A stretch of DNA of 58,771 nt from a virus (taxonomy: Duplodnaviria; Caudoviricetes), in the IMG/VR virus record IMGVR_UViG_3300031578_000039, positions 1 to 58,771 of that record; one strand, given 5' to 3'. Position numbers and translations under genes: made by a program. Each line of letters begins with the position of its first letter. Positions within the stretch are counted from its first letter, which is position 1. Shown one piece after another: positions 1,050 through 45,550 of this stretch. Under the pieces are notes generated by a model. It ran no database searches and had not been told where the DNA came from. It saw only the letters and a list, made by a program, of their open reading frames with translations.

Positions 1050-1167
1050 AATATTGTAACTACGTTTGGTTATGAAGCGTAGCCATTTAGAACGCTTCAA
1101 TTTATTTACTGCCTTATTTGGCTATGTTTTATTAGCCTTTATTATATGGCGTTTTAATACTTAAATT

Positions 1168-1587
1168 ATGAGTTTAGATAAAATTAAAGAAAACCACGAA
1201 AGATTTACAAAAGAAAATGAAGCTATTGAAAAATTGAAAATTGCTTCTAAAAATACAGTTATACAATTTAAAGCTGCAACAAAAGCAATGAATGAACTTA
1301 AATACATTGCTGATTCATTAGGATATAAAGTTGATGAAGATAATGGAGAGCTACGATGTAGCAATAATATGCCAAAATCACCAGAGTGGCGCTGATGTAG
1401 TAATAAATTGCAGCCAATTAAGACAATAGGAATACATGGCAATAAATTCTATAATGATGGTAAATACTTTGGTGAAATAATAGAGAAAACAGACAACTAC
1501 TTTAGGGTTAGATGTAACAACGGCGATAAACATATGAAAGGGAAAATTATTACGGTAAATTTTAACCTAGATGCCGTGCATTGGTAG
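1168..1587 (+). pseudogene. Cassette ORF interrupted by one in-frame TGA (1393-1395)
   Basis: Frame stays open for 63 more codons after the TGA, to TAG 1587 beside the cassette end. Confidence 0.5.
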
Positions 1588-1649
1588 TTTTGCCCTACTA
1601 ACAGCACCGAAACTAATTACAATCACAAATTTATAAATACAGATTAAAG

Positions 1650-1886
1650 ATGAAAAAAATACTTAATGTTATGAAATACGAATTTGGAAACAGACTGATA
1701 GGAAAGGCTTCTGCTCAAATGATACAGCTAAAAACGAATATTGAAAAAGGGTTAAAATGTTCAGTAGCTACAATGAATCCAGAAAAGACAAAAAGAGACT
1801 TTGAATATATAACAGGGGCAAAACTTAATTTAGAATTGAGCGATGGAGGCAAGGATGTTTACAATGCTTCTTTAAATCCCATATAG
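1650..1886 (+). CDS. Hypothetical protein inside a hairpin loop
   Basis: ORF track; flanked by imperfect inverted arms 1608-1624 / 1891-1909. Confidence 0.7.
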   Translation: MKKILNVMKYEFGNRLIGKASAQMIQLKTNIEKGLKCSVATMNPEKTKRDFEYITGAKLNLELSDGGKDVYNASLNPI

Positions 1887-1928
1887 AATTGATTGTATGT
1901 TTAGTTGCGAAATATAAAAAACAAAATT

Positions 1929-2237
1929 ATGATTAAAAGAGAAGATTACTTAAATGCGCTAGAGTTGATAGACCAATATCACCAGCAATTAAATTTACAA
2001 AATGTTAGGTGTATTTCTACTGTTAAAACACCCATTAATGAATGGGAATTTATTAACAAATGTAGCACAAGGCTTAGGAATATACTTTACCACAAGCCTA
2101 TTTATATGGGATGGGATAATCAAAAAAATCCAAATGGATTTGAATATATTGAAGATATATCGAGAAGTTTGTTTTTTTGGCAAAGAAACGCAGGAGAAGC
2201 AACATGGAATGAATTTATCAAGTTACGAGGGTTTTGA
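1929..2237 (+). CDS. Hypothetical protein, possibly RNAP alpha-CTD-like C-terminus
   Basis: STRLRNIL...RNAGEATWNE resembles the alpha-CTD HhH pattern; ATG 1929 preferred. Confidence 0.55.
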   Translation: MIKREDYLNALELIDQYHQQLNLQNVRCISTVKTPINEWEFINKCSTRLRNILYHKPIYMGWDNQKNPNGFEYIEDISRSLFFWQRNAGEATWNEFIKLRGF

Positions 2238-2245
2238 ATTATACC

Positions 2246-2269
2246 TAACGTTGATATAAAAACACCTTT
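2246..2269 (+). repeat. Array-terminal conserved site (attI-like candidate), copy 1
   Basis: TAACGTTGATATAAAAACACCTTT. Confidence 0.7.
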
Positions 2270-2306
2270 CAATTAAAATTAAATTTTAAACATTAAAACT
2301 AAAATC

Positions 2307-2744
2307 ATGAAAACTTATTTAATAGCAAGAGCTAAGATAGAAGATCGTAGTAATAAAAGAGGAATTGATTCTATAATCAATCTAGCCTATATGGGTGCTT
2401 CTGAATATGAATGGGGTGCAATGCCTACTTCGTTATCTAATATTAGAAAAAATCTAAATGAATACATTTATTTAGATGTAAAAATTAAAGACCAGATAGT
2501 AACTGTTTTTTGTAAAGATTCTCAAAAACTAGATGTGAAAAAATACTTACAAGAAATTGCAAGTGGTAAAATGAATACAAAGAATGGAAATAACTTTGAT
2601 TGGTACATTAAAAACAATGAAGAAAGAACTTTATGCGTTAGAAATAGAGTTGACTTCTGGTGGGATATTGAGAATGATTTAATGTTTTGGATTAAATCCA
2701 CTGACTTTGAGGTTAAATTTAAAGAAAAAATATACAACTTTTAA
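2307..2744 (+). CDS. Hypothetical phage protein
   Basis: 145-aa ORF with YMGASEYEWG motif. Confidence 0.75.
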   Translation: MKTYLIARAKIEDRSNKRGIDSIINLAYMGASEYEWGAMPTSLSNIRKNLNEYIYLDVKIKDQIVTVFCKDSQKLDVKKYLQEIASGKMNTKNGNNFDWYIKNNEERTLCVRNRVDFWWDIENDLMFWIKSTDFEVKFKEKIYNF

Positions 2745-2789
2745 AAAAAATATACAACTTTCAATTAAACAATAAACAAAAACACTATA

Positions 2790-3320
2790 ATGGATACTAT
2801 CATAAATGTAACAAATAAAAAAAAGTTTGAAAAACTAATACACAGTGTTGATTGTAGCAAAATGCACGGATACACAGGGAAAGCAGTGATCAAATTTAAA
2901 GCAAATAAATCAATACCTTTTAATGTTAGTTATGACAGAAAGGAATTTGAAAATAAATATGGGTTTATATTAGAAATAAATGGCAATGTTTTTGATATGT
3001 TAAAACATATAGATGTATGCTATTCCATTGGTGTTTCAAGAACTGTATTCAAGAGCATTGGTTCTGGATTAAACGCACTTGATTATTTTATAATCACATC
3101 AAAAGAGTACGAGGATAGTCTTTTAAATTTCGGATTAACATTTAAAGATTCAGAGGATAATAGATACAAAACCATTGAAAGAACTCTTACTGACGATGAG
3201 ATTAATATTTTCAAAAGCCTGCAAGATAATTTTGTGAAAATAATCCATGACAAAAATGGCAGGATTTATGAATTAAAAAATAAAAGTTTCAAGCGTTTTT
3301 ATCAATGTGGTACGGTTTGA
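2790..3320 (+). CDS. Hypothetical protein
   Basis: 176-aa ORF, A-rich leader. Confidence 0.7.
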   Translation: MDTIINVTNKKKFEKLIHSVDCSKMHGYTGKAVIKFKANKSIPFNVSYDRKEFENKYGFILEINGNVFDMLKHIDVCYSIGVSRTVFKSIGSGLNALDYFIITSKEYEDSLLNFGLTFKDSEDNRYKTIERTLTDDEINIFKSLQDNFVKIIHDKNGRIYELKNKSFKRFYQCGTV

Positions 3321-3347
3321 TTTTACAAATTTAAAACACATAACAAA

Positions 3348-4574: not shown

Positions 4575-4839
4575 CGAAGAAATAATCAAACGCCACGCAC
4601 CTGATTGGGTGCGGTGGCATGACCATTGTAAACAACAAGTATTAAACGCTATGGCAGAGAAAGACACTATAATTGTATATAATTCGGAAATTCCTATTTT
4701 ATACGGGAATCTAAAAACTTTGTGTGAAGATTTAGATGTAAGTTACAGCACTTATAGTAAAAAACAATTTCCGTTTAATATTGGAAATATAGAAGTTTTA
4801 AAAATTGAAGTAAAAAGAGGGCATAGAAAAGCGAGTTAA
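4552..4839 (+). CDS. Hypothetical protein, possible HTH
   Basis: NLKTLCEDLDVSYSTY resembles an HTH. Confidence 0.55.
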   Translation: MTTKQTFNEEIIKRHAPDWVRWHDHCKQQVLNAMAEKDTIIVYNSEIPILYGNLKTLCEDLDVSYSTYSKKQFPFNIGNIEVLKIEVKRGHRKAS

Positions 4840-5020
4840 ACGAATTTCTAAAAAGTTGATTAAATGAACGAAAGTAGCCGATTGAACATGTAAGTTTTAC
4901 TTACAACTTGAAATATTTATTAACCGAATAATATTCCAAATACAAGCACTGAAACGCTGAGTGTAAGTTGGCGTTGCGTATAGAAAGCACTAATATTCAA
5001 TAACTTAAATACTTTATAAA

Positions 5021-5308
5021 ATGAAAGAAAATACGAATACCCACAAACCTAGCAATGCAATTTACACATTGTTAGCTGCTTTTAAAAATAGGCAATTGAA
5101 ACGCTGGTTCTATGAATTTGAACATGGACACGAATTTCTATTGAAAGAAGAAGCCGATATAATTTGCGAAACTAGATTTGACGACAAATATAAGTGGATG
5201 AACGACACTATAATACAAGCACTAATAAAGACGAAAGTAAAAGCAATGTATAAAAAGAGATACCCAGATGCGAAACGATGGACGCTGCCTATTTTTTATT
5301 GCAGCTAA
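5021..5308 (+). CDS. Hypothetical cassette protein
   Basis: Starts in the hairpin loop; stop is the TAA of TAAC. Confidence 0.7.
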   Translation: MKENTNTHKPSNAIYTLLAAFKNRQLKRWFYEFEHGHEFLLKEEADIICETRFDDKYKWMNDTIIQALIKTKVKAMYKKRYPDAKRWTLPIFYCS

Positions 5309-5453
5309 CGGTGGTAATATGTTGGCGTGGCTTTTCGCCATGCAATATATTACGTGTTAGCTGACTGGCACGGATCATAAGCACAAATGTTGATTAAATG
5401 CACAACAGTAATATTTTTAAAAGCGAAGCGAGGGAATTTTTTAAATTTGAATT

Positions 5454-6635
5454 ATGAAAACTATAAAAAGAAACAACGGAAACGACATTAAGATTTATGC
5501 AACTACATTAGAAGATGTTGCATTTGAGCAAATTAAAGAACTTGGAGAGTTTGAACCTTACCAAGATTCTAAAATCAGAATTATGCCTGATTGCCATGCA
5601 GGAGCAGGATGCACAATTGGAACTACAATGGAGATTAAAGACAAAATTACACCTAATTTAGTTGGTGTTGATATTGGTTGTGGAATGCTTACAGTAATGT
5701 TAGCCGACAACGAAATAGATTTGCAAAAACTTGATGCTGTAATTAACGAATTTATTCCAAATGGGTTTAATATACATTCCGAGCAAAAAGCAGAATTTGA
5801 GTTTGGTAAACTGATTGCTAAAAACTTAAATATTGACCGAGCTAAATTATCAATTGGGTCGTTAGGTGGTGGAAATCATTTTATCGAAGTTGGTAAAAAT
5901 GGTAATGGAAATTTGTATTTAGTAATACATTCAGGTTCTCGAAATATTGGTGGACAGGTTGCGAAATATTACCAAAACATTGCCATTGATAATTTAACTG
6001 ACAATTCAAATGAACGTGAATTACTTATTGAAAACCTGAAAAAAGAAGGCAGGCAAAATGAAATAGGGAAAGAGTTGAAAAAACTTAAAAAACCAATTAT
6101 AAATAAAGATTTAGCCTACTTAACTGGAACTGATTTTGATAATTATATGCACGACATGAAGTTAATGCAGGAATACGCTGTATTAAACCGTAAAACAATG
6201 GCAACGATTATTTTAAAAGAAGCTGGATTAAGCGCAATGCACTCATTTGAAACAATACACAACTATATCGACTTTAATAGAATGATTTTGCGTAAAGGTG
6301 CTGTTTCTGCTGAAATTGGAGAAACTTTATTGATTCCAATTAATATGCGTGACGGTTCAATTATTGCCAAAGGAAAAGGTAATGCCGATTGGAATTACTC
6401 AGCACCGCATGGCGCAGGTAGATTGATGGGGAGAAAGGAAGCACATAGAAAACTTGATTTTGACGAATTTAAAGAGCAAATGAAAGATGTTTATTCCACT
6501 TCTGTTTTAACTGAAACATTGGATGAAGCTCCAAACGCATACAAACCGATGAATGAAATTTTAGAAGCTATTTCAGAAACGGCAGATGTTTTAGAAATAA
6601 TCAAGCCTATATATAACTTTAAAGCTCATTCCTAA
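5454..6635 (+). CDS. rtcB: RtcB family RNA ligase
   Basis: MPDCHAG, VGVDIGCGM, GSLGGGNHFIE, HSGSR, HNY, SAPHGAGR, DEAPNAYK motifs. Confidence 0.97.
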   Translation: MKTIKRNNGNDIKIYATTLEDVAFEQIKELGEFEPYQDSKIRIMPDCHAGAGCTIGTTMEIKDKITPNLVGVDIGCGMLTVMLADNEIDLQKLDAVINEFIPNGFNIHSEQKAEFEFGKLIAKNLNIDRAKLSIGSLGGGNHFIEVGKNGNGNLYLVIHSGSRNIGGQVAKYYQNIAIDNLTDNSNERELLIENLKKEGRQNEIGKELKKLKKPIINKDLAYLTGTDFDNYMHDMKLMQEYAVLNRKTMATIILKEAGLSAMHSFETIHNYIDFNRMILRKGAVSAEIGETLLIPINMRDGSIIAKGKGNADWNYSAPHGAGRLMGRKEAHRKLDFDEFKEQMKDVYSTSVLTETLDEAPNAYKPMNEILEAISETADVLEIIKPIYNFKAHS

Positions 6636-8375: not shown

Positions 8376-8528
8376 ATGAAATTAATAGGTTTTGGTATTA
8401 AATGTAGCACAACTGATACACTAAGCTATCGAACGAGAACATACATACTTTAAAACGAGAATAAAAGATTGAATTATTGACATAACTGCCTATAAATTAT
8501 ATACTTTGTTATATGCTTTTATAGTGCG

Positions 8529-8711
8529 GTGGCAAAACTTAGAAAAATGTATAAAGTAAAAAGAGAAGAAGTAGAAGAGCAAATTGATTTGGCAACAGAG
8601 AGAATAAACAGTGATGAAAATTGCATGAATGGCATGACCTACGAACAAGGCGTTAAATATGCTCTTGAATGGATAATTGGAGATGCAGAAGAAAAGCCAC
8701 TTGATGAATAG
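8529..8711 (+). CDS. Small phage hypothetical protein (cassette)
   Basis: GMTYEQGVKYALEWI motif. Confidence 0.7.
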   Translation: MAKLRKMYKVKREEVEEQIDLATERINSDENCMNGMTYEQGVKYALEWIIGDAEEKPLDE

Positions 8712-8878
8712 CGTGTTGGCTAATTGCATATAACGATGACAATAAGAAATGTATGGGGATTTAAAAGCAGTAACCTATCCACATACACTGAATTAAATTA
8801 AAGGTACAACTGCACAATTTGGCACTAACACCCATATATTTTTTATTGTGTGTTACCGCCAGTTAATTAAAAAGTCAA

Positions 8879-9121
8879 ATGAGAGACTCAATGGAAATTA
8901 GAAACAGAATTGTTAAAATTTTAGATAACAAAGGTGTGATAGCCGATGTTGACCTAGAACAAATAGCGGAGGATATAGTGTTTGAATTTGTTGAATATAC
9001 AAATTTTATAAATTCAAATTATAAGCCATTCGCAGGTGATTGGATAAAGATAAAAGATGATACAATTGTTTTTCATCCGCTTGTAATAGTAGAAGATTAT
9101 GCAGAATCGAAGCTGTCTTAA
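8879..9121 (+). CDS. Hypothetical cassette protein
   Basis: Fills the cassette body. Confidence 0.7.
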   Translation: MRDSMEIRNRIVKILDNKGVIADVDLEQIAEDIVFEFVEYTNFINSNYKPFAGDWIKIKDDTIVFHPLVIVEDYAESKLS

Positions 9122-9128
9122 TTGGCGG

Positions 9129-9152
9129 TAACGATTGTATAAACACACCTTT
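9129..9152 (+). repeat. Array-terminal conserved site, copy 3
   Basis: TAACGATTGTATAAACACACCTTT. Confidence 0.85.
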
Positions 9153-10451: not shown

Positions 10452-10560
10452 CTTACTAAATAAACACATAAATAAATAAAAGAAAATACAGTTAATAACC
10501 GCGCGTAAACGCCATTAATTATACATATTGTTAGGCTTTCGTGCTTAAATTTATAAAAAC

Positions 10561-10824
10561 ATGTACAAATACAGAGCAATGTGGGAAAGAATCGAAAAAC
10601 TAGAAGTTATAAAAGAAACACCTAAGCAGGTAGTTTTTATAAATGAGCATGGGTTGCAAGACCGAGCGCTTAAAAAAACAAGTTATTTTTCATGGCATGA
10701 CACATTTGAAGAAGCCAAACAAGCTTTAATTGATGAAAAACAGTTTAACATTGATAAGCTTAAAAGACAATTAGAAAATGTAAATGATAGACTAAATATC
10801 GTGCGCGGGCTGCATGAAGCCTAA
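10561..10824 (+). CDS. Hypothetical cassette protein
   Basis: Stop coincides with TAAC. Confidence 0.75.
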   Translation: MYKYRAMWERIEKLEVIKETPKQVVFINEHGLQDRALKKTSYFSWHDTFEEAKQALIDEKQFNIDKLKRQLENVNDRLNIVRGLHEA

Positions 10825-10870
10825 CGATGGTATAAACACACCTTTCAATTAAACAACAAATTAAAATATC

Positions 10871-13156: not shown

Positions 13157-13313
13157 AAAATTATTGCTAACGATCTAGGCTATGAATAGGCAGGGATAAC
13201 GAGCGATACCCTTTCAGCCTACACAAATGATAAAACGAAGCTCACAGGCTTGATTAAGCACATGCGCCATGCTTATTTATAGCCTTTATTATATGGCGTT
13301 TATTCTTACTAAA

Positions 13314-13553
13314 ATGTGTATAATTTGTGATAGTAACGAAATAGGAGATAAATATTTATCTGGAATGCAAGGGGCGATTAATTTATTAAAGTCTTGCGAA
13401 AAGCATTTATTATACCTATCAAATATAAAAAACATAGAATTTGAACCAAGTAAAGAAAAAGCCAAATATTATAATATGGCACATAAAAGACTTGTTAAAA
13501 TTAGAAAACAGTTGTCAGATGTCCAAAGGTTGCGGTCTGGAAATGCCCTATAA
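13314..13553 (+). CDS. Hypothetical cassette protein
   Basis: Stop coincides with TAAC. Confidence 0.65.
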   Translation: MCIICDSNEIGDKYLSGMQGAINLLKSCEKHLLYLSNIKNIEFEPSKEKAKYYNMAHKRLVKIRKQLSDVQRLRSGNAL

Positions 13554-13617
13554 CGGCTGGTATTAGTTGTCGTTTCCGACAAAATTAACAGATAAATTAA
13601 CTTTAAAAACGGACATT

Positions 13618-14301: not shown

Positions 14302-14398
14302 CTGCCTTAATTGGCGGATGAAGTAAATTATTAACCAACAATGTTGATAGATGCACGATAAAATGGCATTTACATATTGTTATAAATCTTATAAAATT

Positions 14399-14545
14399 AT
14401 GAAAACTTACAAAGTACTTTATTGGTGGCACAAAAGTGTAAGAAAACAGGAGTATGTTGATGCAATGAATTTAACAGTAGCACTTAGTTCATTTATAGCA
14501 AAATATGGTGAATAGGAAATTATAAGCATAGTAGAATGTGAATAA
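14399..14545 (+). pseudogene. Small cassette ORF with internal TAG (14513)
   Basis: MKTYKVLYWW...KYGE*EIISIVECE* fills the cassette body. Confidence 0.5.
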
Positions 14546-14617
14546 TTTTATTTGTTTATAACGTTTTGGCTAAAGTGAGTTGCCATAAAACCCACTACAC
14601 TTTTAAATTACAATGAC

Positions 14618-14845
14618 ATGAGTAAAACACACGAACTTATCGGAAACCCACAAACAGGCAATTCACCTTTAGGTGATGTTATGGCTATGTTGCCTGACGG
14701 AATACTATGGAAGAAAGCAAAAGAATACGCACAACAATTTGCAATAAGAGATAAACCTGTTGAAAGTTCAAAACTTATGGCAGATGCACAAGACCATTAT
14801 TATAGAGGAATGATTGAAGCACGTAAAATGCTTATTGGCAATTAA
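14618..14845 (+). CDS. Hypothetical cassette protein
   Basis: N-terminus ..GNSPLGDVM is encoded by the hairpin arm. Confidence 0.7.
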   Translation: MSKTHELIGNPQTGNSPLGDVMAMLPDGILWKKAKEYAQQFAIRDKPVESSKLMADAQDHYYRGMIEARKMLIGN

Positions 14846-14885
14846 ACACAACGAAAATAATATGAACCTGTAAAAATAAAACGGC

Positions 14886-15146
14886 ATGACAGAACAGAAA
14901 GCTAATAAAAAGATACTCATTTGCGGTGCAGGAGCGGGGGCGGGATTAGAAGCCGCTAGATTACTTGCAGAAATGGGAGAAACAAACGTTGAGATAGTAA
15001 CTGATATGGACGACATAAAAGAGCGTGGGATTACGATTAGAGAACCAATAACCATAGCAGCACCGCCAATGGTTGAACCATGGTATACCCCACCAGAAAC
15101 ACGTGCGGAGCGTAGGGCAAAGGCTCGAAAAAAGAAACGAAAGTAG
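14886..15146 (+). CDS. Hypothetical protein lying wholly within an attC-like loop
   Basis: KKILICGAGAGAG Rossmann-like start, basic tail; flanked by inverted arms. Confidence 0.7.
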   Translation: MTEQKANKKILICGAGAGAGLEAARLLAEMGETNVEIVTDMDDIKERGITIREPITIAAPPMVEPWYTPPETRAERRAKARKKKRK

Positions 15147-15342
15147 TTTTATTTTTATGGTTTATATTTAGTGTTGTGTTTTAGTTGCCTGACTAATTCA
15201 CCTCATATTAAACCATAAACTTTTCAGGCAATTAAACACAACGTTCTTAATAAAAATCTGGCGGGGCAGTAGTAACCCGAAACTAAAAGCATAGCGTAAC
15301 ACCCCGCTTGTTTTTATTTATTGTTAGGGTGCGTTAATTATT

Positions 15343-15465
15343 ATGGAAGAAAAATATAGACAATTACTAGAACAGTTTATTGAGCAAATGGAAGTGTTTA
15401 ATGAAACAGGCTTTGATGATGGCTTGCAAGAGCTAGAAGAAGAAGTTAAGGGTGTGTTGCTTTAA
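15343..15465 (+). CDS. 40-aa acidic cassette peptide
   Basis: MEEKYRQLLEQFIEQMEVFNETGFDDGLQELEEEVKGVLL, fills the cassette body. Confidence 0.65.
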   Translation: MEEKYRQLLEQFIEQMEVFNETGFDDGLQELEEEVKGVLL

Positions 15466-15522
15466 TGCACCCTAACGTTTAGGTATGGTTTGATTTTTAA
15501 CGGATTTGAAAAACGAAATATT

Positions 15523-15828
15523 ATGAATTTAGAAAAAAGAGTAAAAGAACAATTATTAATTAGAGGCTTTTCAAGTGAGCTACAACTTAATAACAGGGGA
15601 TTAATTGGAGCAACTATTGATGAAACAACACTAGATTTAGTTAAAAATTTAACTATACCTGTTGTTAACGATATGTTGCCTTTATCTGACTACGCTAAAG
15701 AAAAGCTAAAATATATTAACGGGCATTGGATGGTGCGTGAATTTCCTAAATTAGATAATATTGACCTACAATGGATAGGAGCTGTGCTTGATTTGTTAGA
15801 AGAACTAAAGTTAGGCAATTATCGTTAA
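15523..15828 (+). CDS. Hypothetical cassette protein
   Basis: Contains hairpin-encoded LVKNLTIPV. Confidence 0.7.
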   Translation: MNLEKRVKEQLLIRGFSSELQLNNRGLIGATIDETTLDLVKNLTIPVVNDMLPLSDYAKEKLKYINGHWMVREFPKLDNIDLQWIGAVLDLLEELKLGNYR

Positions 15829-15857
15829 CATTGGTATAAACACACGTTTTAAAACAA

Positions 15858-17277: not shown

Positions 17278-17392
17278 TAGCGTATTATTAAACGGCATAT
17301 CACATGTTACATGTTGTATAACATGTCATTAAATAGCTGATAGTTAAAAAGTAATGCTTACGTTTGTTGATAAACTAATAAATATTAAAAAC

Positions 17393-17722
17393 ATGGAGAA
17401 TTTTACAATCAAAAAATCTATTTACAAAGACGTAGAGACAAAATATTCTATTGATTCATACAATGAATTTTACGGAAAATTTTACAACTCAAGCAATTGC
17501 ATAGTATATATTGGTGGTTTTATTAAGGATAAAAAATCATTTTATATTCAAAAACTAGACAGATATTACAGTATTGAAATAAGAGATATTGTAAATGGAG
17601 GACGTGATAGTTTAAGATTAGAAATTGAACGATCTTATAGAGATTTTGAGTTTAAAAATAATATCACAAAATCAGAATTTTTAGATAAAATAAGTGATTT
17701 TAAATATATGTTAGATTTATAA
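17393..17722 (+). CDS. Hypothetical protein
   Basis: ORF track. Confidence 0.65.
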   Translation: MENFTIKKSIYKDVETKYSIDSYNEFYGKFYNSSNCIVYIGGFIKDKKSFYIQKLDRYYSIEIRDIVNGGRDSLRLEIERSYRDFEFKNNITKSEFLDKISDFKYMLDL

Positions 17723-17727
17723 ATGCG

Positions 17728-17787
17728 AAAACATGTTGTACAACACATGGTTAAAATTTGCATAGTAATATTTAATTTATAGATTTG
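17728..17787 (+). promoter_or_regulatory. Repeated promoter/operator block, copy 3
   Basis: AAAACATGTTGTACAACACATGGTTAAAATTTGCATAGTAATATTTAATTTATAGATTTG. Confidence 0.8.
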
Positions 17788-17855: not shown

Positions 17856-18197
17856 ATGAAAATAGAAAATATTAAAACAATAACAGAATTTTATGAATTT
17901 GCAGACATTTGGCATCAGCGTTCGCATAGGCTGCGGGAGGTTTGGCAAAATATAATAAATACAGACGAACAAAGGGCAAAAGCATTTACACTATGGCTAA
18001 TAATGTATGATAGAGTAATGAAATTATTCGCAATTGCAACTAGGACAAACCAAGTTAAGCCACCTAAATTTGAAAACTGCAATTTGCATATTGTTGGCAA
18101 TAGCGAAGTGGCGTGTTGCGGAAATTGCCACTTGCCATTGGATAATATAGAAATGGTTAAAAAGGTGCAAATTGCTGACAAAAAGTATAACCCATAG
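17856..18197 (+). CDS. Hypothetical cassette protein
   Basis: Reads through GTT at 18093. Confidence 0.7.
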   Translation: MKIENIKTITEFYEFADIWHQRSHRLREVWQNIINTDEQRAKAFTLWLIMYDRVMKLFAIATRTNQVKPPKFENCNLHIVGNSEVACCGNCHLPLDNIEMVKKVQIADKKYNP

Positions 18198-18332
18198 CAA
18201 CATGATTGCTAACGTTGGTATATGGTTTGAAAGCCACGCACCGACATTAATTAATTGAACATAAACTTCCTTGGCTTTTTAACTACATACGTTGTTATAT
18301 GCTTTTAAAGTGCGAGGGCAAAAACTTGAAAG

Positions 18333-18554
18333 ATGAAAATATACACAATTGAACACGAGGAATTTAATTACGATGCCTACTTAGGGCACGTGATAGTTGC
18401 AAATGACAAAAAAGAGGTTAGGGAAATTGCGAAGAAAAGCTCTGCTGATGAAGGCAAAGAAGTTTGGGATAAAGCAAAAATAACAACCGAAGGAGAATAT
18501 ACAGGCAAAAAGAAAGAGCCGTTTACAATGCTAAGTGATTTTAGTGCGGGCTAA
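18333..18554 (+). CDS. Hypothetical cassette protein
   Basis: ORF within a cassette body. Confidence 0.75.
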   Translation: MKIYTIEHEEFNYDAYLGHVIVANDKKEVREIAKKSSADEGKEVWDKAKITTEGEYTGKKKEPFTMLSDFSAG

Positions 18555-18723
18555 TTGCATATAACGATGGTGGCAAGAAATCGTGACGGCTTACGAGCCA
18601 CAAAACTAAAATTACTGATAAATTATGAACGAAGATAAAACCTTGAATAACCCACAAACTCCGGCATGTTTTTTACCACGTGTTACCGCCAGTACGGATT
18701 ATTAACATAAAAACTTAAATAAA

Positions 18724-19023
18724 ATGAGACACGAAAAAATAGTAAAAAGAGAAGATGGTACACAATACCAAATTTGCGTTAATGCCTACTTAGATTCATA
18801 CAGAAGTGAAAGTATGCAGTATAGAATAGATGTTTATTGCAAACAAAAAGGTAAACGCAAATGGTTTAATGTAGAAAAGGAAATTTGCGACCATGAGTAT
18901 AGAAGATTAAGCATGGATAAACGTAGAGAGTATGACGATAACAATAACCTTAGATTTGTAACCAAAGAGGAAATTTACGCTGCCAGAATTGAATTGTGGA
19001 ACTTATTAAAACCACAAATGTAG
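18724..19023 (+). CDS. Hypothetical cassette protein
   Basis: ORF within a cassette body. Confidence 0.75.
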   Translation: MRHEKIVKREDGTQYQICVNAYLDSYRSESMQYRIDVYCKQKGKRKWFNVEKEICDHEYRRLSMDKRREYDDNNNLRFVTKEEIYAARIELWNLLKPQM

Positions 19024-19079
19024 TATTGGCGGTAACACTGGTGTAAACACACCTTTTAATTAATTTATTAATAAAAACC

Positions 19080-28993: not shown

Positions 28994-29057
28994 ATTTATT
29001 GGAAATCAGTTACTTACATAGAAAACTAAAAAAAACTTCACTTTTTCTTTGAAAAAG

Positions 29058-29088
29058 TTTGCAGAATCAGATATTTGTCGTATATTTG
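29058..29088 (+). promoter_or_regulatory. Bacteroidota sigma-type promoter
   Basis: TTTG-N19-TATATTTG. Confidence 0.7.
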
Positions 29089-29123
29089 TATTGAAGGTTA
29101 ACAACAACTAAAAAACAAATATC

Positions 29124-29420
29124 ATGACAAACACTACAACAGTATTTTTAAAAGAAAACAGAGAAGAAATAATTAACGTTTTAAATAACATTATTTCAAA
29201 CATGAGAGGCGTTACCCTTAAAGAAGCAATGGTAACTTTCAAAAATGAAATGGAAAAAACAAATAACAATAAAACTTTATCTTATTTCGCAGTTAAAGAG
29301 CTTCCGCAAACTCAAACCAAAATCGAAGTAGTATATTCTAAGCCTTACAGCCAAAGCAACCACGCTAAAATGGTTAACTATCACGGAAAAGAAAAAGCAA
29401 GACAATTAACCTCTTTATAA
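29124..29420 (+). CDS. Hypothetical protein
   Basis: ORF after the promoter. Confidence 0.7.
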   Translation: MTNTTTVFLKENREEIINVLNNIISNMRGVTLKEAMVTFKNEMEKTNNNKTLSYFAVKELPQTQTKIEVVYSKPYSQSNHAKMVNYHGKEKARQLTSL

Positions 29421-29464
29421 AATAAGAAATAAAAAAATAATTTTAAACACTAAAAACTAGAATC

Positions 29465-29671
29465 ATGAACGCAAGAACAGCAGTCCAAGAAAACGCAAGA
29501 TTAGCAAACGAAATATTTAATTCAGCAAAAGAATTTAGCGAAAGAAAAAACATCACAGTTGAAGAAGCAATAGATTTCAAAGTATCTTTGATGATAAAGC
29601 ACGCCGAAAATGATAACAATCGTGCAGCCATAGAAATTATGGGAAGAAACGCAAAAAAATTAATATTTTAA
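29465..29671 (+). CDS. Hypothetical protein
   Basis: ORF track. Confidence 0.65.
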   Translation: MNARTAVQENARLANEIFNSAKEFSERKNITVEEAIDFKVSLMIKHAENDNNRAAIEIMGRNAKKLIF

Positions 29672-29683
29672 AATTAACAAGCC

Positions 29684-29857
29684 ATGCCAAGTGGAGGTAA
29701 AAGAGAAAATGCAGGAAGGAAATTAAAGTACGGAGAAGCTACAAAAACAGTAGCTTTCCGTGTTCCTGTTTCAATGATAGAAGATTTAAAAAAACATGTG
29801 AAAAATGAGTTTGAAAAACGCAAAAATAGCAATACTACACACTTTCAGCAGAAATGA
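29684..29857 (+). CDS. Small DNA-binding protein (GGKRENAGRK, RHH-like)
   Basis: MPSGGKRENAGRKLKYGEATKTVAFRVP translated by hand. Confidence 0.7.
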   Translation: MPSGGKRENAGRKLKYGEATKTVAFRVPVSMIEDLKKHVKNEFEKRKNSNTTHFQQK

Positions 29858-31058
29858 CAGTACGAGCATAGGTGCTTTGGTGATCAAAGATGAACTGGAA
29901 CGAAAAGGCTATCATGTTGATTTTTGCGACTATTCAAGTGCGTTTAACTATACACACGTACTAGTGTCAATGACCTCTACTGACGATATATTTCATATTT
30001 ATGCAGGGTGCAAAAAAAATAATTGGCAAAACAGAACATTTAAAGCACTTGTAGGAGGTTTTGGTTGCCAGAACCCTATTGCGCTATCCGATTACATTGA
30101 TTATGCTTTTTTCGGGCGTACTGATGGAATTATTGAAGATGTTTTGATTAATCATTTAAAATTCAAAGAGCATCTTTTTAAGATTTCAAAACCTCACATG
30201 GTATCTATTAGGCAGGTTTCAGAATGTTATCCTAATTCAATAAAACACAATGGGGCAAAATGGAGGGAAAAATCGATTGGATGCCCTGTTAAGTGCAAGT
30301 TTTGTTCATTTTCACACACGAGGGATTGGGTAAAAGGAGAATACGAAACTTTTGAATGGCTACTAAAAGGTAGAACACAGGAAGTTCTAATAAAAGATAT
30401 TCCAGAAAAAGTAATAAAAAAACAGGGATGGGTAAAAAGTGCGATTGATGGATATTCCGAAAGATTGAGGTTTAAATATGGAAAGAAATTTGCAACATGG
30501 GAAAACATAGAAAATGCTTTAGACCACTTATGTACATTTAAAGGTACAACTAAATTACAACTATACAATATTCATAATTTCCCAACAGAAACAAAAGAAG
30601 ACATCATAGAGTTTTTTGATTTTTTTAACAATTACGTGGAAGATGCTTACAAGGGCGATGGTAAGCTTATAGTAGAGATACATAATACTCCATTTAGACC
30701 GACATTGTGTACTCCAATGGAAAGGCAGGGTGCGAAATTATTTCCTGCTGCAAAACCTCAGGTAGGATTGTTAAATAATTATTTTAATTATTTGCCAGTA
30801 AAACCAAACTCTTTGACAATCGCATCTAAAAATAATATTCATGTTAAATTCAGCGTTTTTATTGAAAACCCATTTAAGCATTTAAAAGGGCTTATTAGTA
30901 TAAGGTACTCAGACAAGGATATAATAGAAGAAATACTTAGAATTGAAAGTATGTCAGGCGTTAAAGCTTTAGATTATTGTATTAAAAACATAGACATTAC
31001 ACCATATATCCGAGAATACAAAGAAAATGAAGACTTAAAATTCAAGTGGATTAAATGA
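29805..31058 (+). CDS. Radical SAM protein with B12-binding-like N-terminus
   Basis: GCPVKCKFC (CxxxCxxC); N-terminal LVGG..DY.FFG pattern. Confidence 0.8.
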   Translation: MSLKNAKIAILHTFSRNDSTSIGALVIKDELERKGYHVDFCDYSSAFNYTHVLVSMTSTDDIFHIYAGCKKNNWQNRTFKALVGGFGCQNPIALSDYIDYAFFGRTDGIIEDVLINHLKFKEHLFKISKPHMVSIRQVSECYPNSIKHNGAKWREKSIGCPVKCKFCSFSHTRDWVKGEYETFEWLLKGRTQEVLIKDIPEKVIKKQGWVKSAIDGYSERLRFKYGKKFATWENIENALDHLCTFKGTTKLQLYNIHNFPTETKEDIIEFFDFFNNYVEDAYKGDGKLIVEIHNTPFRPTLCTPMERQGAKLFPAAKPQVGLLNNYFNYLPVKPNSLTIASKNNIHVKFSVFIENPFKHLKGLISIRYSDKDIIEEILRIESMSGVKALDYCIKNIDITPYIREYKENEDLKFKWIK

Positions 31059-31303
31059 GGTATAATAAATGGAAATTATCGCATGAAACAGCATTAAAAT
31101 GTTGGTATCCAGATATTTCAAAAATTATGAAATTTACAGGCAAAAGCTATGGTGCTATAATTAATAAAGCTTGGAGATCAGGATTAACAGGAAGCTATAA
31201 AGAAAGAAATTTTACAGGATATAAAAAAACGCCAACTGATGCTGACGTAACAGGAAATTCCCAACGGCTAAAGCCTTATTGTGATTTGCTATTACAAATG
31301 TAG
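31055..31303 (+). CDS. Hypothetical protein, HTH-like
   Basis: GKSYGAIINKAWRSGL. Confidence 0.55.
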   Translation: MRYNKWKLSHETALKCWYPDISKIMKFTGKSYGAIINKAWRSGLTGSYKERNFTGYKKTPTDADVTGNSQRLKPYCDLLLQM

Positions 31304-31365
31304 TAAAAAAATAATACAATAATACTATTTGATTATTAAAAAATGAACGTAAAACTTAAATAACC

Positions 31366-32192: not shown

Positions 32193-32335
32193 TTGCTAAC
32201 GGTACGCAAGTATGAAACGTGCCAACACAAAGATTGATTGAAAAAATGAATTTTAAAATTAACATAAATATTAACTTAGATGCACTACAGGCATGTTTTA
32301 TACTTGCTGTTAGGCATCTGTAAAAATTACGGATT

Positions 32336-32479
32336 ATGGCAACAGTTTATAAAGTAGAAGTAGTATCACATTGGATTAACTACACTGAGGAACAGTTAAA
32401 ACAAATGATTGAAGATGCAATTAAAGAGAAAGAGCGAAAAAAAGGTAACGAAATTCAGATAAAAGTAAAAAGGCAGTAA
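32336..32479 (+). CDS. 47-aa cassette protein
   Basis: MATVYKVEVVSHWINYTEEQL... fills the cassette body. Confidence 0.7.
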   Translation: MATVYKVEVVSHWINYTEEQLKQMIEDAIKEKERKKGNEIQIKVKRQ

Positions 32480-32540
32480 TTTTTATTGTGCCTAACGGGG
32501 TTGGTATGGTTTGATTTTTAACGGATAAATAAATACAAAT

Positions 32541-32789
32541 ATGAAAGACGAAATTAATAATATTATTGACCACCTCGAAGAAACACTTAAAGGCTTTAAA
32601 CAAGCGTATAAAGATGAGGGGTATGATTTGGCAAATGAAACGCATCACGTTACAGAAGCATTAAAATTAGTTAAAAATTTAACTATACCTGTTGCTGTAA
32701 ATCCCGTTATTTGCCCTAACTGTGAAGAAGAATGTGAACCGATACCATTAGGGCAAATGTGCAATAAGTGTTACTACGATAAAATGTAG
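32541..32789 (+). CDS. Hypothetical cassette protein (C-terminal Zn ribbon)
   Basis: LVKNLTIPV then CPNC..CNKC. Confidence 0.7.
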   Translation: MKDEINNIIDHLEETLKGFKQAYKDEGYDLANETHHVTEALKLVKNLTIPVAVNPVICPNCEEECEPIPLGQMCNKCYYDKM

Positions 32790-32873
32790 GGCAAATTATG
32801 GTTTACAACGCTACAGATAAGATACGTTGCGATTTAATACATAAAATTTCGATAACAAATAAACCTTTATAAA

Positions 32874-33134
32874 ATGAAAACACTTTTAAATTACTTACTA
32901 AATAAGCAATGGATTTTATCTATTGTTATGTGCTTTTTAAGCGAGGGCAAAAAAGAGCAAATATACATAGCAAAATTCAGGGCTGAATTAGCATTTTGTG
33001 GGCATGATGTTTCTGATATGACAGATGAAGAAATTAAAGAAGGAATTACTAAAATGGGTGAAATGGTGTCAAAATGCGGAATGACAACAGATGAAGTTGC
33101 AGAAGCATTTAAAGCGTTGGCAAATTGCACATAA
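32874..33134 (+). CDS. Hypothetical cassette protein
   Basis: Starts in the hairpin loop, ends at TAAC. Confidence 0.7.
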   Translation: MKTLLNYLLNKQWILSIVMCFLSEGKKEQIYIAKFRAELAFCGHDVSDMTDEEIKEGITKMGEMVSKCGMTTDEVAEAFKALANCT

Positions 33135-33236
33135 CGTACTGCGGTATGAACTGACCGCATTGTAGACAGTTCAAAATTATACACAAGGTTGATTGCGGTT
33201 TGTTTATACCGTTTGTTAGCCACTTTTATTTAAGCG

Positions 33237-33500
33237 ATGGCAAAATATAGAAAAAAACCAGTAGTAATTGAAGCATGGAAATGGGATGAAACCAAGGAGA
33301 TGTTTGATAAAATAGGCTGTAAAAGTATGAGTAGTAGTGGACATACTGAGCGACCAAACGAAATGACATCTTTAAGAATTAAAACACTTGAAGGAACAAT
33401 GAGAGTTGATAAAGGTGACTTTATTATAAAGGGAGTGAAGGGTGAGTATTACCCATGTAAGCCTGATATATTTGAAATGACTTATGAGTGCGTTGGCTAA
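33237..33500 (+). CDS. Conserved phage protein (KYRKKPVVIEA family)
   Basis: KYRKKPVVIEA..TLEG..GDFIIKGVKGEYYPCKPDIFE.TY. Confidence 0.9.
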   Translation: MAKYRKKPVVIEAWKWDETKEMFDKIGCKSMSSSGHTERPNEMTSLRIKTLEGTMRVDKGDFIIKGVKGEYYPCKPDIFEMTYECVG

Positions 33501-33579
33501 TTGTGGCTAACGGATGGCAGCTATGCCCAGTTGGGCAATAAATAGCACTTAATTATCAAACTATAAATAACTTAATAAA

Positions 33580-33789
33580 ATGGCAAAAAGTAAAAATAAC
33601 CAACAAACCGCCCAATTGGGTATAGGTGATGTTATGCACCGTTCTATTGATTTTGCTAAATATGCGAATAGATATTATGAACTTTGCTATGAAACAGAAC
33701 CTTGCTGGTTTAACAAAAACAACCACGAAAAATATACATCAAATCAAGTTTACAACGCTTTCGTTAAGTACCTAAAGAATGGTGCATAA
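33580..33789 (+). CDS. Hypothetical cassette protein
   Basis: Hairpin-encoded TAQLGIGDVM. Confidence 0.7.
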   Translation: MAKSKNNQQTAQLGIGDVMHRSIDFAKYANRYYELCYETEPCWFNKNNHEKYTSNQVYNAFVKYLKNGA

Positions 33790-33848
33790 CGTTTTGGCTA
33801 TGTTGCGTAGCCTTTTAGATTAGAATTACAAACTTAAAAATTAAAAAT

Positions 33849-34061
33849 ATGATGCCAAAAAGCAGTAAGCGACCAGAAAAAGACGAGGCTATGCAATATG
33901 AGCCTGTGTTATGCACCGTTATTATTACACAAAATGACTTTGATATGTTAAAGATTATTAGAGGCTACTTTGGTAAAAACGATGTAACAGGATTAGAACA
34001 CATGGCTTATGCAGTACTTGACAGGGTGATAAAACAACATGAAAACCCTAATGGTGCATAA
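33849..34061 (+). CDS. Hypothetical cassette protein
   Basis: Starts in the loop, ends at TAAC. Confidence 0.7.
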   Translation: MMPKSSKRPEKDEAMQYEPVLCTVIITQNDFDMLKIIRGYFGKNDVTGLEHMAYAVLDRVIKQHENPNGA

Positions 34062-34126
34062 CGCTATGCAGCTAAACGCTGTTGGCGATTTGGAACACGA
34101 AATTATCAACTTAAAATAAACTTAAT

Positions 34127-34345
34127 ATGGAACACGAAAATTTGAATACAGAAGAAACCGCCAATAGCGATTTAGGTGCTGTTAGGCGTAGTGCTTTGAC
34201 TTGGTGGAACTCAATGACATTTGAGGAACAATTTTATAAAACGATAGCTTGGTTGAAAAGCGAAAACAGGAATACAACAGAAAGGCATCCGCACCATTTA
34301 ACAGGTAGGGAGATTCAGCAGATTTATGAACTGCATTACGCCTAA
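34127..34345 (+). CDS. Hypothetical cassette protein
   Basis: Hairpin-encoded TANSDLGAV. Confidence 0.7.
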   Translation: MEHENLNTEETANSDLGAVRRSALTWWNSMTFEEQFYKTIAWLKSENRNTTERHPHHLTGREIQQIYELHYA

Positions 34346-34386
34346 CGATGGTATAAACACACCTTTCGATATAAACACCTGTAAAC

Positions 34387-43286: not shown

Positions 43287-43341
43287 ATTGTTTCCATATT
43301 TTCGTTTTAAAATAGTCATTAGCAACATGTTACGCTTTAAG

Positions 43342-43605: not shown

Positions 43606-43729
43606 AGTTTTTAGATTTATTATTTAATTAAAGATTTGTTTTTTGTTTCTGATTTCATGATTTATTTTAGTTTTGTACCGTCAACGCTAAAAAACGAAAC
43701 GGTAACAATATAATTAAGTTACTAGTCAC

Positions 43730-43918
43730 TCATGTTACACTTCTAAGCATTCGCAAACCATATAGGCAGATAGTTATTCCTGCTATTAAAAGCACATATT
43801 CATACCATATACGCTCCCATGTTACATTAATCATATCAGCTATTATAATTCCTGCTACAAATGCACCTAGTAAAGTCCAGAAGAATCCTAGCACAAATAT
43901 TCTGTTTTCTTTAGTCAT
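43730..43918 (-). CDS. Two-TM membrane protein
   Basis: Two hydrophobic helices. Confidence 0.65.
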   Translation of the reverse strand: MTKENRIFVLGFFWTLLGAFVAGIIIADMINVTWERIWYEYVLLIAGITICLYGLRMLRSVT

Positions 43919-44015
43919 TGTAATTTATTTTTTAGTTATTAAATCCGTACTAATGCTAACAAGAAAATATACGCTACTTCCCATAAACAAACAGCAAGGT
44001 GTGTTTACACAATCG

Positions 44016-44366
44016 TTATAAACAAGGTGACTCTGGTAGTTCTGCCCAATATTTAACAGGGTTTTGTTTCCTAATATCTCCCATCGCTATATCCCACCAA
44101 CGCTTTGTTATATCAGAATATTCTAGTTTATGTATCGTATTGTTTTCTAAACAAGCCAAGTAGCTGCCCAGCGCACCCTCTGGCAATCTTTCGGAGCAAG
44201 CCACCCAGTTAATAACACTAAATAAACCCAAAGTTTTAACCTTACTTTGATGGTAATATTCAGCGTATTCAGCCATTAATATAGGTACAAATCCAGCAAT
44301 TCTACCTTTACCGTGTTCAGAGTTATTGAACCATTCTTCTGCTTTATCAAATTCTGTAAAATCCAT
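44016..44366 (-). CDS. DUF551-like cassette protein
   Basis: WVACSERLPE...VKYWAELPE. Confidence 0.8.
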   Translation of the reverse strand: MDFTEFDKAEEWFNNSEHGKGRIAGFVPILMAEYAEYYHQSKVKTLGLFSVINWVACSERLPEGALGSYLACLENNTIHKLEYSDITKRWWDIAMGDIRKQNPVKYWAELPESPCL

Positions 44367-44421
44367 TTCGTGCTATTTAATTGGTTAAAAATCAGTGTTT
44401 ATTATTTACGTTATAAACCAT

Positions 44422-44661
44422 TTAGTGATAAATAAATCTACTGTGCGTTGAATCTATCACTATTTCTTGTATTGCCCGCCCACGTGTTCTTTTTCGGTTG
44501 TTATGTTGCGGAGTTGGTCTGTAATGGTTTACAGGTTGCTCAATAACTGGTTCAGATGCGGCTTGCGCTCCAGTTTGTTTTTTACTTCTAAATAAACGGT
44601 TTATAACATGCAACATAAACCATGCCTTTAGTCTGGCAAATAACATTGTAGTTGTTTTCAT
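44422..44661 (-). CDS. Hypothetical cassette protein
   Basis: Starts in the hairpin loop. Confidence 0.65.
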   Translation of the reverse strand: MKTTTMLFARLKAWFMLHVINRLFRSKKQTGAQAASEPVIEQPVNHYRPTPQHNNRKRTRGRAIQEIVIDSTHSRFIYH

Positions 44662-44726
44662 AATTTAGTTTATTTTAAGTTGATAATTTAATTCAATTTA
44701 TACGGCACAGTTCATGTTACCGACCG

Positions 44727-44951
44727 TTATAGGGCATTTACCCATATCTCATCCAATATTTCATACTCAGGGTCGTAAAGTGCTAATCTTTGCTTTCCTT
44801 CTTCATCGTGGTAGTTTTCTAAGCCTAGCTGTGTATCTTCAATGTCGTAACCTTCGTGCTTTTCTGTTTGTTCAATTAAAAAACGCCCTATAACATCACC
44901 TATATGTAATGCCTTGCCGTCTTTATCAAAAATCTCAATACTTGTTTCCAT
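44727..44951 (-). CDS. Acidic hypothetical cassette protein
   Basis: Hairpin-encoded KALHIGDVI. Confidence 0.7.
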   Translation of the reverse strand: METSIEIFDKDGKALHIGDVIGRFLIEQTEKHEGYDIEDTQLGLENYHDEEGKQRLALYDPEYEILDEIWVNAL

Positions 44952-45011
44952 TATTTCTATTATTAAAAGTTGGTGCAGTTTGGTAAAAAGGCACTACACA
45001 TAGCCTTACCG

Positions 45012-45413
45012 TTAGGCACAATTAGCCCACTCAATTAGGTCTGCTATAAACATTTCAAGCTCTTGTTTTTCAATCTTAATTCCGTCAACTTCATATTCTT
45101 GCCAGTTATCAAACCAAGCACCCCTAATTGAGCCACCCCACTTCAACTTATCCGTCAAAAATGGCATGTTTACCATAGTCAGGTAATTAATGTATTGTTT
45201 CTCGTCTTTTTGGTATTCAAATGTAGTCTTGTCAAGTATGCACTTTAGTACCTCTATCATGTTTTTAGCAAACAATACATCTGCATCTTCATCGTAGGTT
45301 GTAAAGTCAAATAAATAAGCTCCTACATATGCCATTTTTGACTCAACCGCACAGCAACCATGTTCCTGTTGTTCTTTATAGTTACTTTCTATAAGTTTTG
45401 TAAATTTTCCCAT
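45012..45413 (-). CDS. Hypothetical cassette protein
   Basis: FDFTTYD..WGGSIRGAWFD; fills the cassette body. Confidence 0.75.
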   Translation of the reverse strand: MGKFTKLIESNYKEQQEHGCCAVESKMAYVGAYLFDFTTYDEDADVLFAKNMIEVLKCILDKTTFEYQKDEKQYINYLTMVNMPFLTDKLKWGGSIRGAWFDNWQEYEVDGIKIEKQELEMFIADLIEWANCA

Positions 45414-45550
45414 CGCTCAAATAAAAGTGCCTAACACCATATAAAATTAATAAGGGTGTTATGCTGGTTTGTGCAGTATTGCCTTTAATTTAGTTTCGAG
45501 TAGTAAGGTAGGCTACTGCTTTTAATCATTCATTCTTTTTGTTTTCTTTA

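Follow-up and report, generated by a model that had tools for sequence, protein, structure and literature searches.

Paired repeats around small phage genes as probable recombination sites of an integron-like cassette system

The complete 58,771-bp genome analysed here, IMG/VR virus record IMGVR_UViG_3300031578_000039 (Duplodnaviria; Caudoviricetes; CheckV completeness 100%), is referred to throughout as the window. Many of its small open reading frames (ORFs) stand between two complementary arms that end in conserved cores, and these repeats probably serve Bacteroidota-type phages as recombination sites in a cassette system resembling the integron. A preliminary description of this DNA had proposed about 30 cassettes in 8-9 arrays, reshuffled by attC-type recombination with an enzyme supplied in trans. 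We recovered the same arrays, eight in number, but the count comes to 24 helices, each of which brackets or closes a small ORF; two of the 24 catalogue rows are mis-registered and two helices are degenerate, leaving 22 well formed. The proposal of attC-type reshuffling in trans is supported by our analysis, each of its parts having withstood a check capable of overturning it, with three departures from the integron scheme: the genes are mirrored, the start codon lies within the site and the enzyme is not an IntI.

Anatomy of the arms, cores and junctions

The 5′ arm of a unit reads T-GTTR-N6-GTT and the 3′ arm AAT-N6′-YAAC-G, with GTTR/YAAC cores in all 24 helices. Positions 2-10 form Watson-Crick pairs in 21-24 of these helices and position 1 is T:G in 20; position 12 pairs as G:T in 10 helices and as Watson-Crick in 3, the other 11 having a mismatch there. 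The N6 segment covaries between the arms, with 21 distinct N6 sequences among the 24 helices. Over 26 helices from the window and from two related genomes, L038 and L039, the T before GTT and the T eleven bases ahead of the core C are invariant, the G after AAC is kept in 24, and the first base after GTT is always A or G, the following positions being free. The non-Watson-Crick pairs are G:T on the sense strand of the gene only, and are flipped for the minus-strand genes at 44-45.4 kb.

When the 5′ window of each gene was compared with its own 3′ end, 13 of 89 genes reached a helix score of at least 26; among mismatched gene pairs, 19 of 882 did so. A core-anchored scan (TGTTR...YAAC[GA], at least 10 contiguous pairs, strand duplicates collapsed) returned 16 helices in the 58.8-kb window versus 7 in 173 kb from 27 unrelated phage loci. 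These control loci are chance matches of the degenerate junction motif in IMG/VR (28 loci in all); the exact junction motif, searched in the same database, matches the known relative alone. A relaxed detector that allowed a mismatch or bulge was dropped as too permissive (34 matches versus 5-18 in shuffles). The three repeat pairs singled out in the preliminary description (8852/9132, 15323/15476 and 33631/33790) all lie where it had placed them.

The 3′ arm usually overlaps the stop codon, which is usually the TAA of the 3′ core. The 5′ arm may precede the ATG by as much as 44 nt or lie up to 72 nt within the ORF, at least seven units having it 46-72 nt inside. Identical arms at 33631 and 33908 are read in different frames, indicating that the arm is a nucleotide-level signal. 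In the units at 33580-34345 and 44422-44951 a site with an intra-ORF 5′ arm dictates part of the N-terminus, and the motifs LGIGDV, LHIGDVIGR and LGAVRR recur there among otherwise unrelated proteins. The pentamer TAACG is neither enriched nor avoided genome-wide (65 observed versus 64 expected), which makes a nuclease recognising the pentamer alone unlikely.

Neighbouring units are joined by the TAAC-[arm-loop-arm]-GTTA hairpins that had been noted before. We folded 20 of these junctions, which measure 56-132 nt from YAAC to the next GTTR and in every case show the order YAAC...GTTR. Two sizes are favoured, about 124-127 nt (11 junctions) and 87-91 nt (5 junctions). The layout, namely YAAC-G, a short unpaired spacer, a second stem, a loop and T-GTTR, is that of an attC site. 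The second stem typically begins with GTATGAA/TTTATAC and continues into a variable part; its first strand starts a few bases after TAACG and its second ends just ahead of TGTTA. The sense strand gives a more stable fold than the antisense strand in 16 of the 20. Within the loop there is often an AT-rich leader together with the ATG and the initial codons, and many of the stems are followed by T runs. One junction segment, 8735-8851, matches the region upstream of 45435 and has counterparts in the phages L007 and G001.

Closing each unit in silico at TAA|CG gave folds with a mean of -21.5 kcal/mol, compared to -15.0 kcal/mol for the array junctions, and in 16 of 17 units the unit's own circle folds better than the array junction. 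This agrees with the earlier claim that the arms match their own unit and not the neighbour. The circle fold is continuous, consisting of a 15-bp base stem, a small asymmetric internal loop right after TAAC, the second stem and the loop; the cassette-specific inverted repeat is therefore best described as the base of the unit's own site, split into its two halves. The internal loop that stands directly after TAAC is of a 4x2 type. Asymmetric bulges are seen, such as CTAT after TAACG at 34062, and a fixed extrahelical base is not definable.

A ‘type A’ flank, TAAC-GATGGTATAAACACACCTTT, is conserved at the ends of arrays; there are seven copies, each followed by a gene without a helix of the same family. 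At 34346-34386, and at this array end only, the flank is followed by its own direct repeat (GGTATAAACACACC then GATATAAACACC).

Exchange between relatives and recombinases beside arrays elsewhere

Comparison with near relatives locates part of the variation at the cores. L007 and L038 represent one relative, 97% identical in the structural genes, and L039 is a third variant. The whole largest array (32201-34343) is replaced by entirely different units in L007/L038 and in L039, and L038 also differs from the window between 44018 and 44725. All four of these boundaries with L038 fall exactly on TAACG/CGTTA, as does the L039 boundary at 34342 on a core. The expectation that gain and loss breakpoints would sit at the cores thus held for four of the nine boundaries with L038 and failed for the other five. 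Contigs from four soil sequencing runs show many rearrangements relative to the window, among them a joint from 13167 to 13551 (five shared letters, within TAACG) that removes exactly one unit in the X3 and X5 contigs.

Units are also shared over larger distances. G001, a complete 51.7-kb phage, has no nucleotide similarity to the window beyond one unit (window 45011-45527), which is 85% identical over 521 nt and ends exactly at TAAC; G001 carries further helices of its own. A distant blastn search with this unit gave one irrelevant match. In the cultured Polaribacter phage P12002L the element surrounds two methyltransferase genes and a Mom-like gene, and one P12002L unit has arms identical to those at 45435/45011 in the window. 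A 1.28-kb unit of L038 (6905-8182) has one arm pair, three ORFs and its own AT-rich region, so units can be multi-gene; it also contains two TTACGC...GCGTAA palindromes resembling operators.

An enzyme acting in trans had been postulated; it is absent here, and in other phages and Bacteroidota genomes arrays of this kind have Xer-like tyrosine recombinases as neighbours. G001 encodes a tyrosine recombinase of 272 residues with PF00589 and PF13495 domains, whose best NCBIfam match is a XerA-like model, below the cut-off, and which scores 93 bits against the integron-integrase model TIGR02249 (cut-off 265). The family comprises 911 proteins at E <= 1e-10, several of them on phage-sized contigs. 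In six of seven further IMG/VR phage loci with a homologue, a Xer-like tyrosine recombinase of 270 residues, 2-12 helices lie upstream on the same strand, and some of their arm types are those of the window. Three of these arrays have their last core about 50 nt ahead of the recombinase start codon. In 80 bacterial loci with related recombinases, helices of at least 12 bp number 39 downstream on the opposite strand; the same strand has 2 downstream, the larger upstream span contains 8, and the 173-kb controls yielded 2. Of the 80 loci, 23 have at least one such helix. The recombinases beside arrays are 255-272 residues long and score 74-222 bits against TIGR02249, and four bacterial enzymes pass a XerA/integron-integrase model while failing TIGR02249. 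A search of bacterial representative genomes with the phage-type profile found no relative; the more distant subgroup belongs to Bacteroidota and a few other bacteria. Related recombinases outside Bacteroidota are those of L133 (Desulfitobacterium), which has adjacent helix arrays, and of L076 and L091 (Paenibacillaceae). Immediately upstream of the G001 recombinase (L044, 960-1080) a 13-bp perfect GTTG...CAAC hairpin with a type-A-like flank is a candidate primary insertion site. In the literature searched, which was incomplete, no publication connecting a Xer-like recombinase to cassette arrays in flavobacterial phages came to light.

The features of the window are collected in Table 1.

Table 1. 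Helices, arrays and flanks of the window, with coordinates in nt unless given in kb; examples one to three are those named in the preliminary description
Feature	Position	Strand	Remarks
Helix regions	1.9-2.25, 5.0-5.3, 8.5-9.1, 10.5-10.8, 13.2-15.8, 17.3-19.0, 32.1-34.35 kb	+	
Helix region	44.0-45.4 kb	-	
Cassette helix around ORF 1929-2237	2003..2250	+	5′ arm inside ORF; type-A flank after 3′ core
Cassette helix GTTAGCTGC / GCAGCTAAC around ORF 5021-5308	5070..5310	+	
Cassette helix, TATGC type, around ORF 8529/8546-8711	8507..8735	+	
Cassette helix, CCGCCA type, 16 bp, around ORF 8879-9121	8851..9133	+	Example one; type-A flank after
Cassette helix with 1-nt bulge around ORF 10561-10824	10529..10826	+	Type-A flank after
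TAACG-to-TAACG unit with ORF 13269-13553	13173..13555	+	Precisely missing in X3/X5 contigs; clear 5′ arm not found
Cassette helix, 10 bp, around 38-residue ORF 14400-14515	14378..14563	+	Read by eye; TAACG at 14559
Degenerate helix of ORF 14618-14845	14677..14853	+	3′ arm repeats the one at 15226-15242
Short-loop ‘empty’ hairpin after ORF 14886-15146	15172..15243	+	Arm family as in helix 14677..14853
Cassette helix, 16 bp, around ORF 15343-15465	15322..15477	+	Example two
Helix closing 3′ part of ORF 15523-15828	15663..15830	+	Type-A flank after
Helix, 14-15 bp, GTTG/CAAC core, around ORF 17354-17722	17312..17745	+	Less certain member because of atypical flanks
Helix, GCAAT type, over Cys-rich C-terminus of ORF 17856-18197	18092..18214	+	Homologous units in L039 and G001
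Cassette helix, TATGC type, around ORF 18333-18554	18293..18566	+	Arms as 8507-8735; ORF unrelated
Cassette helix, CCGCCA type, around ORF 18724-19023	18681..19037	+	Arms as 8851-9133 and L051 6307/6649; type-A flank after
Largest array, seven helices	32072..34347	+	Ends in type-A flank
Largest array, helices 1-4	32073/32200, 32309/32496, 32925/33135, 33215/33511	+	
Largest array, helices 5-7	33631/33790, 33908/34062, 34181/34346	+	33631/33790 is example three
Array between tail genes	44014..45436	-	Helices 45435/45011, 44894/44726, 44607/44410
ORF 44016-44366 of tail-gene array	44016..44366	-	Ends at type-A-like CGTTA at 44014
Type-A flank TAAC-GATGGTATAAACACACCTTT, example	34343..34386	+	Conserved array end
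Other type-A flanks	after 2249, 9132, 10825, 15829, 19036	+	
Other type-A flank	44014	-	

The genome around these arrays has a GC content of about 32% and siphovirus-type structural genes (TerS, TerL, portal, capsid and tape measure in Pfam and PHROGs scans), together with about 40 small ORFs of no known function, nearly all of them on the plus strand. We found no terminal repeat in the record, a tRNA scan of the window gave nothing, and a near-identity search with 15 kb of it against cultured phages gave no match. Among the sequencing runs listed as containing this DNA, none is an RNA run. The best match of its TerL among cultured phages is just 30% identical, so the host is not assignable. 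The 6.7-kb block 24654-31350 encodes an SNF2 helicase, a radical-SAM-like protein and an HNH-containing protein of 913 residues. L038 has 1.4 kb of small ORFs in its place (4624-6012), and the boundaries coincide with gene starts and not with cores. A DUF5131 (Gp37/Gp68-type) protein at 23039-23902 and a weak radical-SAM match at 29805-31058 both adjoin helicase genes and may form a DNA-modification module. An RtcB RNA ligase is encoded at 5454-6635 (Pfam 1.3e-60; PHROG tRNA-splicing ligase) and may repair tRNA damage inflicted by the host; we found no link between this gene and the cassettes, and a circular RNA made by RtcB was discarded as an idea with nothing in its favour except the presence of the gene.

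Proposed mechanism and its alternatives

We propose that a unit would run from just past one TAA|CG core to the next core and would consist of a junction segment (often with the start codon and first codons), the 5′ arm, the gene body and the 3′ arm AAT-N6′-YAA. On circularisation the arms would pair and, with the inverted repeat of the junction, would build one long two-part hairpin on the sense strand: a base stem ending in YAAC/GTTR, a small unpaired spacer, the GTATGAA/TTTATAC stem and a loop. A small Xer-like tyrosine recombinase would recognise the folded strand and exchange strands inside the TAACG core, and units could then be excised, inserted beside another core, or traded among co-infecting phages and hosts. 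Once inserted, the gene would be flanked by the two base-stem halves, which would appear as the cassette-specific inverted repeat. This geometry would fit integron logic if the sense strand were the folding (‘bottom’) strand and exchange took place at the 5′ base of the hairpin. Within this scheme we infer the folding of single-stranded DNA, the position of cleavage and the identity of the acting enzyme. Since this phage has no recombinase, movement would depend on an enzyme of the host or of a co-infecting relative.

A number of observations weigh against such a cassette system. The preliminary description had noted that this apparently complete genome lacks an integrase, and this proved correct: Pfam and PHROGs scans of the window found no integrase or transposase, and a profile and tblastn with the G001-type family found no recombinase or remnant in the window, L038, L039 or P12002L; no enzyme is common to the window, G001 and P12002L. 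We have seen neither an excision or integration event directly nor a circular form. Five of the nine L038 boundaries are off-core (20519, 24654, 31350, 34437 and 34569), and because the core is common to all units, breakpoints exactly at TAACG are also expected from homologous exchange. Arms had been described as cassette-specific, which holds in so far as units are bracketed by their own complementary arms, but identical arm types enclose unrelated ORFs (8508 and 18294, 8852 and 18682, 33631 and 33908). Conversely, ORF 18724-19023 carries other arms in relatives (loose end 18691; joint 19023->15493). Taken together, these last two results indicate that other recombination routes must also act. 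At L038 6850-6907 the cores abut, 0-4 nt apart (TAACG-TATG-GTTA, TAACG-TGTTA), and the second stem is missing; the abutting cores adjoin an ‘empty’ arm hairpin of 49 nt, inside which is a GC-rich terminator-like stem.

Several of these points would be accommodated by ordinary homologous or short-homology shuffling, in which the junctions would be regulatory cassettes like the promoter early stem-loops (PeSLs) of T4-type phages, combining a terminator-like hairpin with a promoter or translation start, and no site-specific enzyme would be involved. Homologous junction modules do recur ahead of different units (8735-8851; L007 and G001), many junction stems precede T runs, the AT-rich leader ending in ATG is a recurring element, ORFs and arms reassort, more than half of the L038 boundaries are off-core, and the phage encodes a PD-(D/E)XK nuclease domain; shuffling by PeSLs, with mini-circles, is also on record (Arbiol et al. 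2010, PMC2839356). We nevertheless consider shuffling alone unlikely, for it leaves unexplained why each unit has complementary arms with a free, covarying N6, why closing a circle at the core restores a single continuous hairpin, why the non-Watson-Crick pairs are G:T on a single strand, and why, in bacteria as in other phages, a tyrosine recombinase gene adjoins the arrays. The strand bias would also fit a second explanation, that the helices act in RNA, through long-range pairing around cistrons and intercistronic hairpins in the processing, stability or translational coupling of polycistronic mRNA, with exchange at the motifs as a by-product. All wobbles are G:U-compatible on the transcribed strand and flip with gene orientation at 44-45.4 kb, and G:T pairs restricted to the sense strand suit a structure in RNA equally well; the stop codon is usually overlapped by the 3′ arm, and an RtcB RNA ligase is encoded. 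Yet an RNA mechanism leaves unexplained the invariant TGTTR/YAACG cores, the exact removal of one unit, the passage of another between phages that are unrelated, and the linkage to a DNA recombinase gene; the window has no Rfam match at E <= 1, and the 5′ arm lies anywhere from -44 to +72 relative to the ATG, in two units in different frames. We regard an RNA role as the whole explanation as quite improbable; both shuffling and an RNA role may coexist with the cassette mechanism.

It is very unlikely, in our estimation, that the units are canonical integron cassettes, that is, an ordinary cluster of attC sites without an integron integrase (CALIN), acquired from a bacterial integron and carrying true attC sites on which a host IntI had acted. 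An attC identity is favoured by the polarity (AAC...GTT), the two stems and the length of 56-132 nt, and HattCI called two P12002L junctions attC, one of which was recombined by IntI1 (PMC9892861). The ORFs are however mirrored, with the start codon within the site, the base stem is about 15 bp compared to 7, only the first base after GTT is kept as a purine, the array-side recombinases fall short of the TIGR02249 cut-off, the units are spread over eight loci without an attI-intI platform, and IntI1 failed with the second P12002L site. Two further readings were rejected, that of invertible segments because the G/T asymmetry is never flipped, and that of an IS200/IS605-like element because TnpA is absent and one end pairs with the other.

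If the cassette system operates as proposed, its implications would go beyond this genome. The mosaicism of phage accessory genes is usually ascribed to undirected recombination, and in the complete phage genome studied here roughly one gene in four belongs to a unit whose exchange site is defined and based on structure. Members of this site family also occur in bacterial chromosomes, soil phages and a cultured marine phage. Should a Xer-like enzyme move the units, this would be a dedicated phage gene-capture device comparable to the integron; it would explain the spread of small host-takeover, methyltransferase and anti-defence genes between unrelated phages, and would provide a testable enzyme-site pairing as well as a signature for mobile phage genes in metagenomes. 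In our judgement the chances are about even for a broader proposition, namely that Bacteroidota phages and their hosts share a mirror-image integron analogue of their own, with a small Xer-like recombinase and a site that doubles as an expression signal and encodes the first residues of the protein, and that phages lacking the enzyme draw on and feed a common accessory pool when it is supplied in trans.

Comparison with integrons, PeSLs and pdif modules

The attC consensus consists of R″ = RYYYAAC and R′ = GTTRRRY; a short unpaired spacer divides these boxes from a second inverted pair, L″/L′, beyond which comes a variable terminal structure. Extrahelical bases mark the recombining strand, and a classical cassette is a promoterless ORF upstream of its own attC, opposite to the folding strand. 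An integron also has a neighbouring integrase, IntI, with its specific insertion, together with an attI site. Like attC, the sites of the window are imperfect palindromes of about 56-132 nt with AAC...GTT cores, an unpaired spacer and a second stem; as in integron cassettes, the start of a unit is complementary to its own distal core and exchange points lie within the core. The repeated type-A flank at 34346-34386 recalls the accessory direct repeats of attI. The arrays resemble CALINs in lacking a recombinase, there being eight clusters without one, although they are CALINs only if the sites count as attC. Unlike in the integron, the gene is read away from its own site, which precedes the ORF, carries its start codon and leader, and folds better on the sense strand; the base stem is about 15 bp rather than 7 and contains fixed T:G and G:T pairs; only the first base after GTT is kept as a purine; and the units are dispersed over eight loci with no attI-intI platform and are associated with a Xer-like enzyme of 255-272 residues, under the IntI model cut-off. 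Mirrored genes, a start codon in the site, the longer stem, the dispersed arrays and the non-IntI enzyme thus argue for an integron-like way of working outside the IntI/attC family. The strand and cleavage conventions behind this comparison are in part those of Qi et al. (PMC9892861), whose section 3.4 quotes the R′ sequence as G|TTRRRY.

Qi et al. 2023 (PMC9892861) reported CALINs from virulent phages, with integrase-less attC clusters in 17 phages, and their Table S3 lists only two P12002L sites, called attC by HattCI; according to the primer table of the same paper, both are junctions or ends of the present site family. IntI1 recombined P12002L_attC2 with attI1 (section 3.4), whereas P12002L_attC1, the cleaner member of the family, failed in the results given there, a finding that speaks against the proposed cassette system.

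The units also share features with PeSLs. In both, small accessory ORFs in plastic regions each have a recurring module of a hairpin plus an expression signal, near relatives differ by gain, loss or replacement at the modules, and circular intermediates come into play, having been proposed for PeSLs. Comeau et al. (2014, PMC4122927) are said to have treated PeSLs as regulatory cassettes of T4-type phages. Arbiol et al. 2010 (PMC2839356) documented shuffling and mini-circles in T4-type phages and define the PeSL, in the account given there, as a sigma-70-like early promoter with a terminator stem-loop, placed in direct orientation between ORFs. Unlike PeSLs, which are direct repeats subject to homologous recombination, the units of the window have covarying inverted arms and GTTR/YAAC cores, and in relatives they are linked to a tyrosine recombinase.

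A pdif site is double-stranded and 28 bp long, with inverted 11-bp arms and a 6-bp centre. The pdif modules of Acinetobacter plasmids, described as Xer-dependent (PMC7399989), resemble the present units in being single-gene modules with inverted sites, a 6-bp variable centre and Xer-type tyrosine recombinases. Unlike in pdif, the tetramers that flank N6 are direct repeats on one arm (GTTA-N6-GTTA), and the pairing partner lies across the gene or the junction, which implies that a folded strand, rather than a double-stranded site, would be recognised.

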